Below are positions 1 to 10,738 of a stretch of DNA of 64,000 bases, piece after piece. This DNA comes from Candidatus Galligastranaerophilus intestinavium. GTDB lineage: Bacteria > Cyanobacteriota > Vampirovibrionia > Gastranaerophilales > Gastranaerophilaceae. Under the pieces are notes generated by a model, which had not been told where the DNA came from, ran no database searches, and saw nothing but the letters and a program-made list of their open reading frames with translations. The DNA lies in assembly GCA_018716625.1 (NCBI GenBank), contig DVJQ01000042.1:61-64060 (forward strand), in the 5' to 3' direction. The stretch's first letter is position 1; the number at the start of each line of letters is the position of its first letter. The position numbers and the translations under genes are program-made.

Positions 1-1565
1 GCTACTGCTCTTTCATTCGCCCATTCTCTGATAGCAAGTATTTGTTCTGATTGTGTTGTAGAGAGCGGTACAGTGTTCTTTATAACCTTGTACAAATCCT
101 CTTCTTTTAGAGTCCTGTTTTCAGAAAATGCTTCAAACAGGGCAGAAATTACAACCTGCTCAATTTCAGCACCTACAAACCCTTCTGTTATCTCTGCGAG
201 TTTGTTTAAAAGAGTATCAGTAACCGCAAAATCTTTAGAAATACTGCCTTTTAATCTTTTCTCAAGGTGCAGTTTAAAAATAACCTTACGTTCAGCTTTT
301 GTCGGTAAGTCAACAAAAAAGATTTCATCAAATCTGCCTTTTCTTAGCATTTCAGACGGCAGAGCATTAATGTTGTTAGCCGTTGCAATGACAAATACAG
401 GCTTAGTTTTTTCCGACATCCAAGTGAGGAATGTTCCGAAAACCCTTGTAGCAGTTCCACCGTCACGCTCTCCGCCATTACCGCCAAATCCTTTTTCAAT
501 CTCATCAATCCAGAGGATAGAAGGTGCTACGGCTTCCGCTGTCTGAATTGCCTTCCGCATATTTTCTTCACTGCTTCCTACAAGTCCGGAAAAGATTTTT
601 CCTACATCAAGCCTTAGCAAAGGTAACTGCCATAATGCACTCATAGCTTTTGCCGTCAAACTTTTACCGCACCCCGGAACACCTGTTATTAAAACACCTT
701 TAGGGGCAGGAAGATTGTAATCCTTTTGAGCCTTACCGAGCCATGAGTTATTACGCTTAATAAGCCACTTTTTAAGGTTCTCCAATCCGCCCACATCATT
801 CATATTGAAATCGGACTTGATAAATTCAAGTATTCCTGTCTTTTTAATTACTTGACACTTTTCATCAAGAATTACGTCCAGTTCCTTAATCGTTAATTGT
901 CCTTTAGAGACCATTGCTCTTGCAAAAGCGTTTTCTGCTTCCTGTAAAGTCAACCCCTGCGCTGCTTTACAAAGGACTTCTTTCTCATCTTCCTTTAAAT
1001 CAATTACAATGCCGGAACTTTCATTCATCTCAATCATTTCATTAAGCAGGGATTTTATTTCATCTAATGTAGGCAGGTCAAAATCTACTACGGTAATATC
1101 TTTTTGCAGTTCCAGAGGTAGAACAAGAGAAGGTGCAATAATTACAACATTTTTGGAAACATCTGCATTCTTTAAAGAGCCGGCAACATCACGAATTTTT
1201 CTTATTAGGTTATAATCTGCATTTCTGTTATTAAGTCCTAATAGTGGGTGAATGTCCTTTAGTATTAGTATTGCCGGATTATTGTAATTATCTATGAAAT
1301 TAAGAGCGTCAATCGGCTCATTTCCATTATTTACGCTTTCCTGTCCGTCTTTTAGGTTCTTTTTTAATCCTTCCGTTGAACTCCAGATAAACACATCTCG
1401 CTTAGTTTTAATAGTTTTGACATTATTAGCAATTTTAGTGATAAGGTCTACAATTCTGATTTCTTCCCACGTTGGAATATACACGAAAGAGAACCTTGCC
1501 TTAAATAGGTTAGTTAAGTGTTGTTCAGTTTTCTTTAATCCTTCTAATACTACTGTCTGTGCCAT
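1..1565 (-). CDS. AAA+ ATPase, CDC48/FtsH-like single AAA module behind a ~250-aa N-terminal domain; the 3' end runs off the window
   Basis: Absent from the ORF track because it has no stop inside the window. My minus-strand translation from ATG 1565 (SD GAGGT 8 nt upstream, 3 nt after the stop of the upstream gene) stays open to position 1: MAQTVVLEGLKK... Walker A GVPGCGKS is encoded at 660-683. Walker B is ILWIDEIEK, followed by GRFDEIFFVDLP. The tail reads ...PLSTTQSEQILAIREWANERAVA. The + strand ORFs 73-546, 1009-1215 and 1294-1707 are antisense shadows. Confidence 0.85.
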   Translation of the reverse strand, partial: MAQTVVLEGLKKTEQHLTNLFKARFSFVYIPTWEEIRIVDLITKIANNVKTIKTKRDVFIWSSTEGLKKNLKDGQESVNNGNEPIDALNFIDNYNNPAILILKDIHPLLGLNNRNADYNLIRKIRDVAGSLKNADVSKNVVIIAPSLVLPLELQKDITVVDFDLPTLDEIKSLLNEMIEMNESSGIVIDLKEDEKEVLCKAAQGLTLQEAENAFARAMVSKGQLTIKELDVILDEKCQVIKKTGILEFIKSDFNMNDVGGLENLKKWLIKRNNSWLGKAQKDYNLPAPKGVLITGVPGCGKSLTAKAMSALWQLPLLRLDVGKIFSGLVGSSEENMRKAIQTAEAVAPSILWIDEIEKGFGGNGGERDGGTATRVFGTFLTWMSEKTKPVFVIATANNINALPSEMLRKGRFDEIFFVDLPTKAERKVIFKLHLEKRLKGSISKDFAVTDTLLNKLAEITEGFVGAEIEQVVISALFEAFSENRTLKEEDLYKVIKNTVPLSTTQSEQILAIREWANERAV

Positions 1566-1568
1566 TCC

Positions 1569-2147
1569 TTACCTCATTGCCTTTAAAACTTCCTTAAAAT
1601 TTCCCATTCCGTTAAGAGAAATATTGTTGTTCTTATCAATCCTTACTTCAATCTTGTTTCTGTACTTAGTGATAATGCTTTCATCGTACCTGTCAGAGAA
1701 GAAATAATAATTCTGATTACTTGAACCTACCCATGGACGGCTAAAATCCTGTTTATCTTCTTCATACCTGCCGTCAATGAGGACATCAATATATTTTGTG
1801 AGTTCTTTAAACATTTCCATGCCGGTTAATTCACTATACTTGTAGCCTGTAAAAACAACAACAGACAGCCCGATTTCTTGAACTGCCTTAGAAATTGCTG
1901 TAACTGCTTCTATTTGTTCCAGAGGTTCACCACCGAGAAAGGTTATACCCTCTATTTTATCCTTGTAGAATTTGATTAAGTCAATTAATTCTTCTACATC
2001 GTAGATAGTACCACCATCTTTATCCCACATTGCATGATTAGCACACCCCTTGCAATGCAAAGAACACCCTTGAACCCAGATGCAAAACCTTGTATTTGGT
2101 CCCTCGGCGGTAGTTATTGGTATGTATGAATTAATCCTAATATCCAC
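1569..2147 (-). CDS. NrdG-family radical SAM (4Fe-4S) activase-like protein
   Basis: CSLHCKGC (CxxxCxxC, encoded at 2043-2066), GITFLGGEPL, VDVLIDGRY...WVGSSNQ. It aligns motif-for-motif with the host NrdG at 51197-51688. The ORF track starts it at 2234, which would overlap the upstream gene by 98 nt. An in-frame GTG at 2147 overlaps that gene's stop and is the more likely start. Confidence 0.8.
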   Translation of the reverse strand: MDIRINSYIPITTAEGPNTRFCIWVQGCSLHCKGCANHAMWDKDGGTIYDVEELIDLIKFYKDKIEGITFLGGEPLEQIEAVTAISKAVQEIGLSVVVFTGYKYSELTGMEMFKELTKYIDVLIDGRYEEDKQDFSRPWVGSSNQNYYFFSDRYDESIITKYRNKIEVRIDKNNNISLNGMGNFKEVLKAMR

Positions 2148-2349
2148 CCTGTTGATACCCCTCGTTGTATGTATCGTTGTATACTTCCTGCTGATGATAC
2201 TCCTCGGTAAATTCAGAGTAAACAGTCTTTGCACCTGTTAATTGTTCAACTTCCTTTATGTAGTTCAAGCAGGATTTCCCCTTGATACCTACAGTTTCTG
2301 ACTCAATTCTTCCGTCCGGATATACTCGGATTTTAATTTGCTTGGTCAT
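2137..2349 (-). CDS. small DUF2997-like protein
   Basis: The 70-aa protein MTKQIKIRVYPDGRIESETVGIKGKSCLNYIKEVEQLTG... matches my recollection of the DUF2997 pattern (I.I..DG.V...V.G..G..C....). SD GAGGGG lies 9 nt upstream. The gene overlaps the upstream gene by 17 nt. Confidence 0.6.
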   Translation of the reverse strand: MTKQIKIRVYPDGRIESETVGIKGKSCLNYIKEVEQLTGAKTVYSEFTEEYHQQEVYNDTYNEGYQQGGY

Positions 2350-2908
2350 TATTTAACCCCTCTTTTAATTCTTGTAAAGTATCAATATCAAGTGTCTTAA
2401 TCTTGCTATCATCCCAATCGCCATCAAGAAATTTTGTGACATCAACTTCTGATATATCAAAGTAATGAATAGGTAATTGTTCATAATACTGATTTTCAGC
2501 AGGGTGACTTTCAACCTTTAGGATATTTTCAAGTAAAATCTCACCTTGACAGTTAATTACGTCATATACATCCACCCATCCGTTAAAAGCTTTCTTATTT
2601 TCAACAGAATGCAAGCACAAAAATATATCCGTATCCTGAACAAGTTTCATATTATGGTAAGATTTTGACGGAGAAATCACATTGCCATGGATGTTTAAGA
2701 GTTTGAAGTTTCGTTCATACATATCATATTGAAGTTCAAATGCCAGAAAAACATCGTTGCCGTAGTATCTGAAATAGCAATCTTTTATATCCTCATTATT
2801 AGGAAATTGAGCAACAAGTTTGTTATTGCTATCTTTTACGCACCAAGAATCATTAATCAATTCAATAGTATATTTATCAGGTTCTAAAATCTGTTCAGCC
2901 ATATTCAA
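2333..2908 (-). CDS. hypothetical protein (about 190 aa, no motif recognised)
   Basis: Long ORF in operon register. SD AAGGAG precedes TTG 2908 / ATG 2902. It lies 9 nt downstream of the CBS gene's stop. Confidence 0.6.
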   Translation of the reverse strand: MNMAEQILEPDKYTIELINDSWCVKDSNNKLVAQFPNNEDIKDCYFRYYGNDVFLAFELQYDMYERNFKLLNIHGNVISPSKSYHNMKLVQDTDIFLCLHSVENKKAFNGWVDVYDVINCQGEILLENILKVESHPAENQYYEQLPIHYFDISEVDVTKFLDGDWDDSKIKTLDIDTLQELKEGLNNDQAN

Positions 2909-2917
2909 ATTTTCTCC

Positions 2918-3649
2918 TTATTTATCTAAATCCCAATGAGTAATGATACCAAGCAGTTTTTCACTACTGTGACCGTTTTCAGTTACAAACAGAGCTTCAA
3001 GCCGTTTTTTATCAACAAGCGATTTTTTAAACAAATCTTTTATATAATATTCATCACAAGTCTTGGCAACAAACTTATATTCAATTTCCTTATTCTTATC
3101 AAGACTGCAAAACTCTATTAAATCTGCAATTGTCGCTTTTTGTGGTTCTTCTACAATACCGTCTTTATTCTTGTTAAAATACAGCATTAAGGAATGTGAA
3201 GAAAAAACTCCTATTAATTTCTCGGTATTATCTACAATCGGGGTACAGGTATAATTTTTCTCTAACATTGTTTCTATAACATTAGATATTATTTCTTCCT
3301 GCTTAACTTTATAAATACTGCTTTCTTTAACTGCAATGTTTAAAGCAGTTTTAGGGTGCATTATTCTATCTGCATCCCTAGAGAAATCATCATATAGCTT
3401 TTGCGTAAGAATTACATAATTTCCATTACGAACCTCAGGTTCATGCGTTAATAAGTTTCTCAGATTTCTGTAAAATTCCCAGAGATTACGGTTACGTTTC
3501 AGAACTTTATCATTCAAAATATCGAATTTTCCAAATGTCACTGCATTATTTCGATTTTTAATAAATGTTTCAAACTCGGTGTATTTATCAAGAAAATCTT
3601 GTGTTAATGTCATATCCGCCTTTCTTAATTTTGCCCCATTTTGTACCAT
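2918..3649 (-). CDS. HEPN-like (RNxxxH) N-terminal domain fused to a CBS-pair domain
   Basis: The helical N-terminal ~100 aa end in LWEFYRNLRNLLTHE, with R-N-L-L-T-H encoded at 3443-3460 (an Rx4-6H HEPN-type motif). The C-terminal half has two CBS-like units (...LIGVFSSHSLMLYF... and ...LLGIITHWDL). The start may instead be ATG 3613 (SD GAAAGG), which would put the left inverted repeat in the 5' UTR. Confidence 0.65.
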   Translation of the reverse strand: MVQNGAKLRKADMTLTQDFLDKYTEFETFIKNRNNAVTFGKFDILNDKVLKRNRNLWEFYRNLRNLLTHEPEVRNGNYVILTQKLYDDFSRDADRIMHPKTALNIAVKESSIYKVKQEEIISNVIETMLEKNYTCTPIVDNTEKLIGVFSSHSLMLYFNKNKDGIVEEPQKATIADLIEFCSLDKNKEIEYKFVAKTCDEYYIKDLFKKSLVDKKRLEALFVTENGHSSEKLLGIITHWDLDK

Positions 3650-3652
3650 ATT
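3631..3652. repeat. left arm of an exact 22-bp inverted repeat (TGCCCCATTTTGTACCATATTG)
   Basis: Its reverse complement is identical to 3802-3823. Extended to 3657, it reads TGCCCCA-N13-TGGGGCA, a recombinase-core-like palindrome. Confidence 0.9.
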
Positions 3653-3749
3653 GGGGCAAACTCTGAAAATGACTGATATAAAAGAGTCCTAGCATATAAA
3701 GAACAGAGAAATATTATTAAATTGCAACAAAATGAGGGCTGTTTACGGT

Positions 3750-3778
3750 TTGACAAAAGCCTGTGTTTTGCGTATATT
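3750..3778 (+). promoter_or_regulatory. near-consensus sigma70-type promoter TTGACA-17 nt-TATATT inside the putative invertible segment, currently reading away from the operon
   Basis: TTGACA is at 3750-3755 and TATATT at 3773-3778, with an exact 17-nt spacer. In this orientation it leads into a 12-codon mini-ORF (3806-3844) and then antisense into the recombinase gene. Confidence 0.55.
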
Positions 3779-3801
3779 TGCTATCATAGGGCAAATTGTA
3801 T

Positions 3802-3823
3802 CAATATGGTACAAAATGGGGCA
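3802..3823. repeat. right arm of the exact 22-bp inverted repeat
   Basis: CAATATGGTACAAAATGGGGCA is the reverse complement of 3631-3652. It duplicates the first 5 codons of ORF 2918-3649 in inverted orientation. Confidence 0.9.
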
Positions 3824-3857
3824 CCACATTCTGGGGCAGTTTAGGTATTAAGAACTT

Positions 3858-4403
3858 TTAAAGTTCAAAATTTTTGTAACTGAAATCTATTTCGTCCTGT
3901 TCAACCCCAATATACATGAGAGTTATTCTCTGGCTTGAATGATTAAATATTTTCTGCAATACAATAGGGTCTTTAAATTTCTGATAGTGATGATAACCGA
4001 AAGATTTTCGCATTGTATGAGTTGAAACGTGGGCGGTTATTCCGTTTTCTTTACAGGCTCTGACAATAAACCTATAGACCTGTGACCTGTCTAATCGCTT
4101 ACCTTGCTTGCCGAGAAATAAAGGTTCTTCAAGGTTTTTACCCTTTGTAAAATCTTTCAAAACTCGTTTTAATTTGTCGTTAATGTAAAAACTTTTCAAT
4201 TTCTGGGTCTTTTTCTCAACGATTGTAATATGGGTTTTATTAACAACATCCGAAACATTTAACCCTACAATATCCGAAACTCGTAAACCGGAGTTCATTC
4301 CAAGTACCCATATTACATAATCTCTTTTGTTATGTAATTTCAAGTATTGTTCAATCTTCTCAATATCTTTTCTGTTCTTTATCGGTTCAGCTTTCTTATT
4401 CAT
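3858..4403 (-). CDS. small tyrosine recombinase (catalytic domain only, FimB/FimE-sized), candidate invertase
   Basis: At 181 aa it has GLRVSDIVGL (Arg), HTMRKSFGYH (HxxR) and a C-terminal ITLMYIG (Tyr). SD GGAAGGAA is present. It sits directly beside the inverted-repeat pair. Confidence 0.85.
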   Translation of the reverse strand: MNKKAEPIKNRKDIEKIEQYLKLHNKRDYVIWVLGMNSGLRVSDIVGLNVSDVVNKTHITIVEKKTQKLKSFYINDKLKRVLKDFTKGKNLEEPLFLGKQGKRLDRSQVYRFIVRACKENGITAHVSTHTMRKSFGYHHYQKFKDPIVLQKIFNHSSQRITLMYIGVEQDEIDFSYKNFEL

Positions 4404-4485
4404 CTACATTCCTTCCTGCAACATTAAAATCGTTTCGTTGCAAGATAGAATGTAAGTAAACACAGGTTATATAAGCAAGATAGTA

Positions 4486-4611
4486 TTAATGCGTAAGCAT
4501 TGCACCGATATTTAGAAAAGCAAGCAATAGCAACTCTCCCAAAAATCCGAGAACTGGAATTAAGATTATTGCTAATAGAATGCCAAGTGCTATTTGTATG
4601 ACTTTTCTCAT
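4486..4611 (-). CDS. 41-aa hydrophobic peptide (MRKVIQIALGILLAIILIPVLGFLGELLLLAFLNIGAMLTH), below the ORF-track size cutoff
   Basis: Its ATG overlaps the TGA of the upstream Bro-N/DinD-like gene (ATGA coupling at 4608-4611). The sequence is almost entirely hydrophobic behind an N-terminal RK. Confidence 0.4.
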   Translation of the reverse strand: MRKVIQIALGILLAIILIPVLGFLGELLLLAFLNIGAMLTH

Positions 4612-5462
4612 TGCTTATTCTCTATCTGCCTTGGTTTTCTGCTCTTGGGTAAGAAATTTTCATCAGTAATAACAGGTTTTCCTGTCTGTAATTCAATTTG
4701 TTTTCGTGCTTCTTTAGCTACACTTCCGCCCTGTTTTGCTACAGATTTATTCTCTTCTAACGTTTTCGGGTTCTTTTCTTTAGAAATTTCAGTTGTTGAA
4801 ACTTCCGCTAACATATTTAAAACAAGTTCCATGTTAGACATATTATCTCTTAGGCTTTCCTTCTTTAAACCTTTAAAATCTTTATACTCACGAGTTTTCA
4901 TGCCAGACCATTCCTGTGTTAATATATCAGTAAGAATGCCGTATTGATTATCTGCAACACCACTCCTTTTCCATTCATCAGTTAATGCTTTTCTGATTTC
5001 AATGGATTTTAAGCGTTGATTTACCCATTCCGGAGAATATCCCTTGGTTAAATAATATTGTAATGCTCTGTTAATCGCAATTTCCGGGTCTTGAATTTCA
5101 TCAAGTCTTTCTCTACCGACTTTTGCAAGCCATAACTTAAAAGGTTCAGCCTTCGGACTAGGAATAGACTGAACTAAGCGTAAAACACCTTCTGTATCAA
5201 GAACATCGGTTTTATAATACTTCCCATCAGAAGATTGCATTTTCAGTTGGTTACAAGTTGTAACCAACTGACTACCTTCCTTGCGTAGTCTGTTTTTTAG
5301 CACTTTCCAATAATTATTAGGATTTTTACTATCTGACAATATACCGACAATATCAACAACAGAGAAATACCAAGTTTCTTTCTCTCTATCCCACGATGTC
5401 CTAACTTTATAATCTTCAAACAGTTTAATGGATGTCTTAATGTCTTTTTCAGTCTTTTTCAT
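4608..5462 (-). CDS. Bro-N domain / DinD-like (DNA-damage-inducible protein D family) protein
   Basis: The N-terminal WYFSVVDIVGILSDSKNPNNYWKVLKNRLRKEG...TDVLDTEGVLRLVQSIPSPKAEPFKLWLA resembles Bro-N/DinD. The size (284 aa) is close to E. coli DinD. Confidence 0.65.
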   Translation of the reverse strand: MKKTEKDIKTSIKLFEDYKVRTSWDREKETWYFSVVDIVGILSDSKNPNNYWKVLKNRLRKEGSQLVTTCNQLKMQSSDGKYYKTDVLDTEGVLRLVQSIPSPKAEPFKLWLAKVGRERLDEIQDPEIAINRALQYYLTKGYSPEWVNQRLKSIEIRKALTDEWKRSGVADNQYGILTDILTQEWSGMKTREYKDFKGLKKESLRDNMSNMELVLNMLAEVSTTEISKEKNPKTLEENKSVAKQGGSVAKEARKQIELQTGKPVITDENFLPKSRKPRQIENKQ

Positions 5463-9178: not shown

Positions 9179-10705
9179 ATGTTAAATGCAGTCAGTTACG
9201 TAAGAGTATCGTCCGAAGACCAAAAAAAACACGGATATAGTATTGGACAGCAGATAACCAATTGCATGAACTATGCTTTACAAAACAACTATAAGCTGAT
9301 AAAAACATTTAAAGATGAGGGCATATCCGCTAAAGATTTAAACCGTCCTGCTTTACAAGATTTACTAGCGTATTGTATGGATGCAACTAATGAAGTTAAA
9401 GCCGTTATAGTATGGAAATTAGACAGGATTTCAAGGAGTGTAGCGGATTATACTGCAACACTATCCCCATTTTTTGCTCAAAATGATATCCAACTTCTAA
9501 CCGTAGCAGATATTAACGGTGAGGGGCTTGATGTTGAAATGATGAGGCAAATTTCCATGGTATTTGCTGAACGTGAGCGTAAAATGACAGCATTAAGAAC
9601 CAAAGAGGGTATAAGAGGTAAAGTTGCATTAGGACAATACCCTTATCATGCCCCTGTAGGCTATGAAAATATCGAGGTTAAAGGTTCTAAATATAAGAAA
9701 ATGGTAATAGATGAAGAAAACGCATTCTTTGTAAGGCAGGCATATAACCTCTGCTTACAGGGTGACTCCATTGTGACTATTACCAAAAAATTATATAATA
9801 TGGGATTTAGGAATAAACACGGAAACAAGCACCCAAAATCTTCTATTGAATATATATTACACAACATAGCATATACAGGAAAATTCTATTATGATGATAT
9901 TTTAGTCGCAAATACTGATTATGCACCTATAATAAGCGAAGCCACTTACTATGCAGTGCAAGAAAAACTAAATGCACCAGAGAAAACAAGACAAATGCAC
10001 ACTCAATTTCCATATAACGAGTGCATGACCTGCGCTAAGTGTGGTTGTGCAATGACAGGGGAAGTTAAAAAGAAGGTATCAAAGAAAACTAAGAAGGTTA
10101 TAAGAGAATATATCTACTATCATTGTACCGGAAATCGTGGCGGTGACTGCAAAAAGCATAGTTATATCAGGCAGGAACTTATTGAAGAAGCTTTTGTGAA
10201 TATTTTGCAACATATAACAATTCCTGAACACGTACAGGAACTTGTTATTAACGGTCTAAAAAAGGCTCATAAGGAACAGAACCACGATTATGAAATGCAG
10301 AAGAAATCTATTAGAAAGAGAATTGACAAGATAGATAAGGCTCTCAAAAATGTTTTTGAAAACGATTTTGATAAACATGACCAAGGAACATTAAAGAACA
10401 TTAAAAACTGGAAGGCTGAACGTAAAACATTACTCCTTGAAGAACAAGAACTATTAAAAGCAACAGAGACCTTTTTTGTACAATCGAACTGTTTATTGGA
10501 ATTCTGCAAAGACGCTCAGAATGCGTTTTTACAGGGAAATGCCGAACAAAAAAGAAGAATCGTAAAAATAGTATGTTCGAACTTTTCTTACGATGGCGAA
10601 AACCTAGTCATAGAGCCTAAACCAATATTTAAGGCTGTCATTAAAAACAGCCTTTCCAATAAAAAACTCCCCAGGTTGGACTCGAACCAACAACCTACCG
10701 GTTAA
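9179..10705 (+). CDS. large serine recombinase (resolvase domain + recombinase domain + zinc ribbon + coiled coil)
   Basis: The N-terminus YVRVSSEDQ...GYSIGQQ gives the catalytic Ser. It also has DRISRS, a CxxC...CxxxxxC zinc-ribbon region (CMTCAKCGC...YYHCTG...C) and a long C-terminal coiled coil. SD is AAGGAAGGG. The last 13 codons are read from the antisense of tRNA-Asn. Confidence 0.9.
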   Translation: MLNAVSYVRVSSEDQKKHGYSIGQQITNCMNYALQNNYKLIKTFKDEGISAKDLNRPALQDLLAYCMDATNEVKAVIVWKLDRISRSVADYTATLSPFFAQNDIQLLTVADINGEGLDVEMMRQISMVFAERERKMTALRTKEGIRGKVALGQYPYHAPVGYENIEVKGSKYKKMVIDEENAFFVRQAYNLCLQGDSIVTITKKLYNMGFRNKHGNKHPKSSIEYILHNIAYTGKFYYDDILVANTDYAPIISEATYYAVQEKLNAPEKTRQMHTQFPYNECMTCAKCGCAMTGEVKKKVSKKTKKVIREYIYYHCTGNRGGDCKKHSYIRQELIEEAFVNILQHITIPEHVQELVINGLKKAHKEQNHDYEMQKKSIRKRIDKIDKALKNVFENDFDKHDQGTLKNIKNWKAERKTLLLEEQELLKATETFFVQSNCLLEFCKDAQNAFLQGNAEQKRRIVKIVCSNFSYDGENLVIEPKPIFKAVIKNSLSNKKLPRLDSNQQPTG

Positions 10706-10738
10706 CAGCCGGTTGCTCCGCCATTGAGCTACTGAGGA
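10667..10738 (-). tRNA. tRNA-Asn (anticodon GTT), 72 nt, no encoded CCA
   Basis: Minus strand: TCCTCAG TA GCTC AATGGCG GAGC A ACCGG CTGTTAA CCGGT AGGTT GTTGG TTCGAGT CCAAC CTGGGGA G. It folds into a full cloverleaf with a T-loop TTCGAGT. Confidence 0.9.

Follow-up and report, generated by a model that had tools for sequence, protein, structure and literature searches.

The stretch of DNA analysed here, called the window below, comprises 64,000 nucleotides (nt) of contig DVJQ01000042.1 from Candidatus Galligastranaerophilus intestinavium (assembly GCA_018716625.1; class Vampirovibrionia). Its minus strand carries an open reading frame (ORF) at 2918-3649, with a maximal length of 243 amino acids (aa) in the ORF list, that encodes a minimal HEPN-like domain followed by a pair of CBS domains; the gene is referred to as HEPN-CBS. 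The HEPN-like domain, delimited by AlphaFold2 (AF2) models and by profile matches to HepT, is assigned to ORF residues 13 to ~100 (3350..3613), and CBS domains 1 and 2 occupy approximately residues 103-160 (3170..3343) and 170-243 (2921..3142), respectively, all on the minus strand. No other gene stands between HEPN-CBS and an invertible promoter, an arrangement that is newly described here.

The true start of the ORF is probably M13 (3613), giving a product of 231 aa (2918..3613, minus strand), because every homologue (224-235 aa) aligns from M13 onwards, because a ribosome-binding site (AAGAAAGG) lies 5-8 nt ahead of the M13 ATG, and because codons 1-5 of the maximal ORF fall within an inverted-repeat arm (3632-3653). 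The 243-aa start was rejected, since it lies within this repeat and its 12-residue extension is seen in no homologue. Residue numbers below refer to the 243-aa ORF; counted from M13, R64 and H69 become R52 and H57.

The N-terminal domain contains the sequence R64-N65-L-L-T-H69, a putative HEPN catalytic Rx4H motif recognized by its conservation in the family and by its alignment to HepT and to the anti-phage protein DS-11. A first-pass annotation, made from the letters of the sequence, had placed R-N-L-L-T-H at residues 64-69, encoded at 3443..3460 on the minus strand, and codon arithmetic confirms this position. The schematic W.F...LR.LRN...H drawn around the motif in that annotation is off by a few positions, the actual sequence being W-E-F-Y-R-N-L-R-N-L-L-T-H. 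In the full-length AF2 model, with a predicted local distance difference test (pLDDT) score of 87.5 and a predicted template modelling (pTM) score of 0.77, the N-terminal ~100 residues are all-helical; a model of the isolated domain, built from a 41-row sub-alignment, has a pLDDT of 85.4. The AF2 models give the domain three long helices, with a helix-2 region that is short and poorly conserved in the subfamily of the window protein. The motif closes the penultimate long helix (H50-69) at its C-terminus, and a loop then leads to the final helix H83-97. Hence the earlier description of a motif at the end of a helical region of ~100 aa stands as to the all-helical character but not as to the end, since the final helix follows. 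The location at the end of the penultimate helix fits the definition in the 2013 HEPN survey, where the Rx4-6H motif is located 'at the end of helix-3' (PMC3710099).

Conservation in the N-terminal domain is concentrated on the motif, which goes well beyond a chance match. The first search recovered 25 relatives, down to 26% identity, and a 23-row alignment shows R64, N65 and H69 as invariant together with five residues of the CBS pair. Among 174 aligned members, whose identity to the query goes down to ~20%, R64 is kept in 171, N65 in 171 and H69 in 172, and no other N-terminal position is more than 89% conserved; besides R, N and H, F19 alone is near-invariant. The loss of the R/H pair among homologs, which the first-pass annotation had raised as a possible objection, is accordingly not what the family displays.

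Profile comparisons point in the same direction. A 41-row profile of residues 13-108 matches the HepT toxins 6m6w, 6m6u and 5yep in the PDB at E=5.6e-4 to 9.3e-4; the match spans ~65 residues, and HMMER aligns the RN..H of the family to the catalytic RNIAVH of HepT. The HEPN protein HI0074 comes next in the same search (E=0.18). In a member-by-member Pfam scan of 128 members, HEPN families are matched in the N-terminal segment at sub-threshold scores: HepT-like in 18 members (best 22.3 bits against a cut-off of 23.5; best single-member E 1.1e-4), DUF4145 in 9, HEPN_RiboL-PSP in 8 (best E 2e-4), HEPN_Swt1 in 4, HEPN_Apea in 4 and HEPN_Cthe2314 in 3. The commonest Pfam match of the domain is DUF6548 (30 of 128 members, all below the cut-off), of which a literature search gave no mention and which occurs in none of the genomes of the window's class. 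Pfam returns nothing in the first 100 residues of the window protein itself, and the full-length profile matched CBS proteins alone among PDB sequences. No free-standing relatives of the N-terminal domain appeared in a set of 5.8 billion proteins, searched by a method that needs shared 5-residue words. The invariant R-N-x3-H, the weak but convergent HEPN profile matches and the HepT match in the PDB agree with the HEPN-like domain proposed at first pass, and on these sequence comparisons the domain probably belongs to the HEPN superfamily.

The remainder of the protein is a CBS pair, as had been annotated. Pfam calls a single CBS domain on the window protein (residues 112-157, E=4.9e-10) and finds CBS in all 128 scanned members; TIGR01302 matches residues 209-242, and NCBIfam gives partial CBS matches only. 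With the full-length model as query, Foldseek returned only CBS pairs, in the form of complete Bateman modules aligned over ~143 columns with a target template modelling (TM) score of 0.7-0.77, and the best matches include CBSX2 with adenosine monophosphate (AMP) (4gqy, E=7e-9) and the CBS pairs of KpsF/YrbH. CBS domain 1 contains Y133 and G147-V-F-S150, the latter conserved at 90-99%. CBS domain 2 contains a ribose-binding-type motif, G234-I-I-T237-x-x-D240, and its end reads G234-I-I-T237-H-W-D240, with G234, T237 and D240 conserved at 91%, 89% and 93%, respectively. The pattern G-h-h-S/T-x-x-D is the ribose-binding signature of CBS-ligand structures. Furthermore, hhalign relates CBS domain 1 to that of DS-11 at a probability of 92%, with Y133 falling on DS-11 Y157, and position 133 is aromatic (Y or F) in 94% of the members. 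The CBS pair retains the adenosyl-ligand signatures and is predicted to form a ligand site.

Upstream of HEPN-CBS, a repeat search reveals a perfect inverted-repeat arm of 22 bp on the gene-proximal side (3632..3653) and a second 22-bp arm on the recombinase-proximal side (3802..3823), which enclose an invertible segment of 148 bp (3654..3801). A gene for a tyrosine recombinase of 181 aa, the presumed invertase, is located at 3858..4403 on the minus strand (Pfam Phage_integrase E=1e-24). The promoter scan places a promoter, TTGACA-17-TATATT (11/12 matches), at 3750-3778 on the plus strand, so that in the assembled orientation it faces away from the operon. In the inverted form, by sequence arithmetic, 63 nt separate the end of the -10 box from the M13 ATG.

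Three related assemblies and four Logan DNA runs contain no sign of the inverted orientation. Contigs of DNA run X19 contain the two junctions that mark an inverted segment, at a depth of ~12.4, besides the reference junction (depth 5.5). Junction 1 joins 3637|3827 on opposite strands, and junction 2 lies on a 190-nt contig in which the repeat connects the 3801 end with the flank on the gene side (AAATTAAG). HEPN-CBS is covered by metatranscriptome contigs, which speaks for its transcription. The inverted junction is present too in metatranscriptome run X25, where a contig of 9.9 kb (depth 54) covers window positions 1-3622 with HEPN-CBS and the four genes downstream of it, ending just before the repeat. 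RNA runs with little operon coverage contain the reference junction or none, which is only a hint of a link between low operon coverage and the reference orientation; the depth of a contig says little about expression, and a metatranscriptome may include DNA, a caveat that counts against the expression part of the reading proposed below. DNA inversion in front of HEPN-CBS is shown by the contigs, and we infer from it a phase-variable expression in which only part of the population would express HEPN-CBS.

The region as a whole is located on an integrated element. One end is marked by a large serine recombinase ORF of 508 aa (9179-10705; Resolvase, Recombinase and Zn_ribbon_recom domains), which ends inside a tRNA-Asn gene (10667-10738, minus strand), and the other end lies beyond the contig end that cuts the AAA+ gene described below. 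As a separate observation on this region, a Bro-N protein encoded at 4608-5462 on the minus strand matches the PADLOC candidate PDC-S13 over its full length (E=1.2e-131) and, by this match, belongs to a family already flagged as defence-associated.

A profile search of 1.84 billion representatives of 50%-identity clusters gave 7,286 proteins at E<=1e-3 and 576 at E<=1e-30. The top 150 matches are nearly all 220-260 aa long and align from end to end, and the mean column identity of the family is ~25%. A full-length copy is present in 9 of 301 genomes of the window's class. The nearest named genome is a Candidatus Gastranaerophilales metagenome-assembled genome (MAG). The gene is missing from a same-genus genome and from most sampled genomes of the window's own family, and one same-family genome holds a decayed copy with several in-frame stops (G183:C1:185356-185654, locus L035). 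MAGs of gut and rumen Alphaproteobacteria also carry the gene, at 44-49% identity, and this presence across phyla indicates horizontal spread. A related-locus search with 12 close rows gave 4 genome loci.

Close homologues, at 44-68% identity, stand alone in each of the following contexts. One follows a WYL regulator among restriction-modification, PIF1-helicase and Abi_2 genes; one follows an AAA_15 ATPase and is clustered with BrxC/PglY-like and PLD-helicase genes; one lies beside a type I restriction-modification system and an OLD nuclease; one is on an integrase-rich element; and one is situated between GmrSD, a Fic protein and an ABC-3C system. Altogether, at least 6 of 8 contexts of this close subfamily are defence islands or mobile elements. 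A 35%-identical member adjoins ParE/Phd at a variable prophage junction. The loci compared show HEPN-CBS to be a mobile module in its own right, which occurs singly in the defence islands and mobile elements of unrelated gut bacteria. Two further observations concern the homologues. Small tyrosine recombinases are encoded 4-5 kb from HEPN-CBS homologues at L021:7280-7834 (184 aa, 46% identical to that of the window) and L001:2620-3201 (193 aa). In addition, a predicted 199-aa protein on a 2171-bp ENA contig (P0017) is 99% identical to one third of HEPN-CBS, yet is annotated with S4 and FtsJ, and is probably an assembly or gene-calling chimera.

The reading that we favour, at a probability of roughly 0.6, is that HEPN-CBS encodes a stand-alone, ligand-gated and phase-variably expressed two-domain HEPN ribonuclease (RNase) of ~231 aa. 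By analogy with DS-11, HepT, Csm6/Csx1 and RNase L, the protein would form a homodimer. An adenine-containing ligand, on binding to or leaving the CBS pair, may then alter how the two HEPN domains face each other, and this would decide whether the two Rx4H motifs make up a composite, metal-independent RNase site. Once active, such an enzyme would cut cellular and/or phage RNA and arrest growth, either as abortive infection or as dormancy. Phase-variable expression would limit the cost of carrying the gene. The RNase, ligand and anti-phage functions are predictions by analogy for every member of the family.

Beside the caveat on contig depth, a number of results weigh against the ligand-gated RNase. 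The models contain only three long helices, so the N-terminal domain would be a reduced HEPN domain at best. Every Pfam HEPN match falls below the gathering threshold. In hhalign, the similarity to the HEPN domain of DS-11 is limited to 21 columns round the motif (E=0.0026, probability 11%), and that to 20 HepT proteins from genomes of the class to 17 columns (E=6.6e-4, probability 27%; a reversed-sequence HepT control gives E=0.43). Foldseek, proposed at first pass for the two regions separately, matched only CBS pairs with the full model and gave no match at all for residues 13-108: against the PDB and BFVD, the isolated model has no match below E=2, HEPN or other. Short helical bundles carry little 3Di signal, and this blank neither confirms nor refutes a HEPN fold. 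PADLOC has no model matching the window protein, and PHROGs likewise has none. A tblastn search of 50,697 phage and 72,556 plasmid records detects no copy.

The blank in Foldseek, the confinement of the hhalign similarity to the motif helix and the count of three long helices instead of four would suit a domain that is not a catalytic HEPN, and one source labels a homologue 'predicted transcriptional regulator'. On this explanation, the N-terminal domain would be a helical dimerisation, nucleic-acid-binding or ligand-binding domain of a CBS-regulated adaptor or transcription factor, and the conserved R, N and H would serve binding. Against it, an invariant R-N-x3-H preceded by a hydrophobic pattern, located at the end of the penultimate helix in a family with a mean column identity of ~25%, is the diagnostic signature of HEPN domains. 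Simultaneously, the recurring sub-threshold matches go to HEPN families, the more frequent DUF6548 being without known function, and the HMMER alignment to HepT covers 65 residues and thus extends beyond the motif. We regard a non-HEPN domain as quite improbable.

The distribution of the distant members raises a second alternative and likewise speaks against a family-wide role in defence. At ~20-32% identity, members lie in ordinary chromosomal neighbourhoods, for example between a glycosyl hydrolase and BipA or between SecA and a citrate transporter, and are kept across one genus of large genomes beside HI0933-like oxidoreductases; such a pattern is compatible with a housekeeping role for part of the family. 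HEPN-CBS would then be a housekeeping or stress regulator, an RNase or RNA-binding protein that senses energy charge or a second messenger and tunes RNA turnover or dormancy, with no dedicated anti-phage role. Ligand-responsive control of RNA stability has in fact been proposed for HEPN-CBS fusions (PMC3710099). However, the association of the close subfamily with defence islands and mobile elements, the absence of the gene from a same-genus genome and from most sampled same-family genomes, the crossing of phyla at 44-49% identity and the placement of the window copy on an integrated element under a phase switch all argue against it. A purely housekeeping function is therefore considered unlikely, though it is the alternative to which we give the most room.

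Four further genes follow HEPN-CBS on the minus strand: a gene for a protein of 189-191 aa without any Pfam, NCBIfam, PADLOC or PHROGs match (2333..2908), DUF2997 (70 aa; 2137-2349), a NrdG-like radical-SAM gene (1569-2234; 120.6 bits in the NrdG model, against a cut-off of 126.1) and an AAA+ ATPase gene cut by the contig end (3-1565), DUF2997 and the ATPase being assigned by Pfam/NCBIfam. The first-pass annotation had regarded HEPN-CBS as co-transcribed with an enzyme that cleaves S-adenosylmethionine (SAM), and it described a HEPN domain under CBS control in this setting as an unusual sensor-effector logic. The radical-SAM gene is situated three genes downstream of HEPN-CBS, and local co-transcription is plausible, because the gaps are small (9-15 nt) and no terminator-like site is found in the scanned part (2800-4500). 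A conserved linkage, on the other hand, does not hold. Across 20 family loci, tblastn detects the four downstream genes in no more than two, those of the 96%-identical relatives L008 and L022, and 18 of the 20 loci are without a radical-SAM, DUF2997 or AAA gene within 7-10 kb.

Viewed from the other module, the result is the same. DUF2997 is present in 39 of 301 genomes of the class, and among the 30 DUF2997 loci fetched, 11 besides that of the window have DUF2997-rSAM-AAA (rSAM, radical-SAM) in the same order; HEPN-CBS and the 191-aa gene are upstream in none of them, so the proposed sensor-effector logic with the SAM-cleaving enzyme is not conserved. Three genomes carry HEPN-CBS and the DUF2997 module on separate contigs, and the complete set of five genes is confined to the window and the two 96%-identical relatives. 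HEPN-CBS and DUF2997/rSAM/AAA are independent modules, and their adjacency is lineage-specific, not a conserved partnership. A toxin-antitoxin pair formed by HEPN-CBS and the 191-aa gene was considered as well and rejected, as the latter is found beside HEPN-CBS by tblastn only in the window's lineage (L008 and L022) and no conserved partner appears in the other contexts. As an observation on the module itself, many genomes of the class (loci L073 and L077-L093) have DUF2997 beside a related AAA+ ATPase with no radical-SAM gene between them, which makes the radical-SAM gene an optional insert in a DUF2997/AAA (ycf46-like) pair.

The switch is shared more widely with this module. Seven same-family genomes (L065, L068, L070, L071, L074, L075 and L076) have a homologous recombinase of 179-190 aa upstream of DUF2997-rSAM-AAA, and four of these seven recombinase-linked loci contain an inverted-repeat-flanked segment of 104-183 bp. 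The slot between the switch and DUF2997 is variable in the seven genomes, being either empty, with no ORF called at L070, L071, L074 and L075, or filled with unrelated ORFs of 88-123 aa; in the window, the slot holds HEPN-CBS and the 191-aa gene. A variable slot resembles the variable effector slots of some defence systems, and together with the shared strand, the 9-15-nt gaps, the lack of a terminator-like site in 2800-4500, the single metatranscriptome contig over all five genes and the ability of CBS pairs to bind adenosyl ligands, it would suit HEPN-CBS as the effector of the adjacent DUF2997/NrdG-like radical-SAM/AAA+ module. The CBS pair would sense an adenosyl product of the radical-SAM enzyme, either 5'-deoxyadenosine or a modified nucleoside, and switch the RNase on. 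This explanation is hard to reconcile with the 18 of 20 family loci that lack the module, with the absence of HEPN-CBS from the 11 other module loci, with a slot without called ORF in four of the seven and with the three genomes holding both elements on different contigs, and we consider it very unlikely. The same low weight is given to its extended form, a plug-in effector of phase-variable radical-SAM/AAA+ signalling in which the AAA+ protein triggers the NrdG-like enzyme, the CBS pair reads the product and the RNase fires. If true, it would constitute a radical-SAM-based second-messenger route in bacterial immunity, with the slot as a site of effector swapping.

Returning to the stand-alone, ligand-gated RNase, the principle of combining HEPN and CBS is not new. 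It was predicted in 2013 (PMC3710099) and validated in DS-11 in 2026 (PMC13092281), so the design of the window protein is not unusual, contrary to what the first-pass annotation had suggested. Under the Swt1-like HEPN family, Anantharaman et al. listed proteins in which an active HEPN domain is joined to CBS and, in some cases, to HD as well, with alr3009 and gi 118580987 as examples; they proposed that these fusions respond to nucleotide ligands and regulate RNA stability (PMC3710099). Some of those fusions contain the extra HD phosphohydrolase domain, which the window protein does not have; the comparison with these examples is one of published descriptions.

DS-11 is the closest functional parallel. 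This E. coli protein (WP_000257686.1; NCBIfam NF053863, 'CBS domain-containing anti-phage protein') was identified with DefensePredictor and validated in E. coli as a one-protein anti-phage system in which CBS precedes HEPN (Science 2026; PMC13092281). It has 365 aa, with an N-terminal region of ~120 aa, a CBS pair and a C-terminal HEPN domain related by HHpred to the SAV2148-like family, and the mutants R330A, H335A and Y157A each lose phage defence; the authors conclude that the HEPN nuclease is under the control of the CBS domain, to which some adenine derivative binds (PMC13092281). That defence is lost on mutation of either HEPN or CBS supports a ligand-gated RNase logic. Both DS-11 and the window protein are single proteins combining a CBS pair with a HEPN or HEPN-like domain that has R-N-x3-H, the motif here aligning in hhalign to R330-N-D-V-M-H335, and Y157, the adenine contact in the DS-11 model, corresponds to Y133. 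In contrast to DS-11, whose HEPN domain is at the C-terminus, the window protein is only 231 aa long, has HEPN first and has no extra domain; the best HEPN matches of its N-terminal domain are to HepT-like and RiboL-PSP instead of SAV2148-like. It scores 18.1 bits against the NF053863 cut-off of 260, with CBS domain 1 alone matched, and in hhalign only CBS domain 1 and the motif helix are related to DS-11. Because of the reversed domain order, the lack of the extra domain and the score below the cut-off, the window protein is classed by sequence as an analogue of DS-11 and not as a member of its family, and the fusion probably arose independently. Another E. coli protein, the 263-aa 'CBS domain-containing protein' WP_001532511.1, is a predicted novel defence gene in the same study (PMC13092281).

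Other known systems resemble parts of the proposed protein. By profile, the closest solved relative of the N-terminal domain is HepT of HepT-MntA, the HEPN-MNT type VII toxin-antitoxin (5yep, 6m6w), a small dimeric RNase that is all-helical and whose R-N-x3-H likewise precedes the last helix. HepT is AMPylated by an adjacent MNT nucleotidyltransferase antitoxin, whereas control of the window protein would be exerted by the fused CBS pair; no MNT gene is among the window neighbours (recombinase, 191-aa protein, DUF2997, radical-SAM and AAA), and the Pfam lists for eight homologue contexts include no nucleotidyltransferase family. In Csm6/Csx1 and RNase L, a dimeric ligand-binding domain gates a composite HEPN/KEN RNase site on a nucleotide signal, but the sensor is CARF or ankyrin/pseudokinase, not CBS. 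Their ligands, cyclic oligoadenylates and 2-5A, come from dedicated synthetases, and none is linked to the HEPN-CBS family. In the case of the switch, gut-bacterial invertons with FimB/FimE-type recombinases share the short inverted repeats round a promoter, the ~180-aa recombinase and the presence of both orientations in one sample. The cargo here differs, consisting of a putative toxic RNase and radical-SAM/AAA+ genes, not of fimbrial, capsule or restriction-modification specificity genes.

DS-11 has only recently brought CBS-gated HEPN RNases into the set of validated single-gene anti-phage systems, and the family described here comprises 576 clusters at E<=1e-30 without any family-level annotation of the N-terminal domain. 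An apparently independent and smaller fusion (~231 residues), in the opposite order, could help to find the common ligand and gating mechanism, and the small HEPN-CBS protein is an easy target for structure and biochemistry. Meanwhile, the invertible promoter in front of a gene that may be toxic to its own cell suggests that gut bacteria carry costly immunity by bet-hedging.

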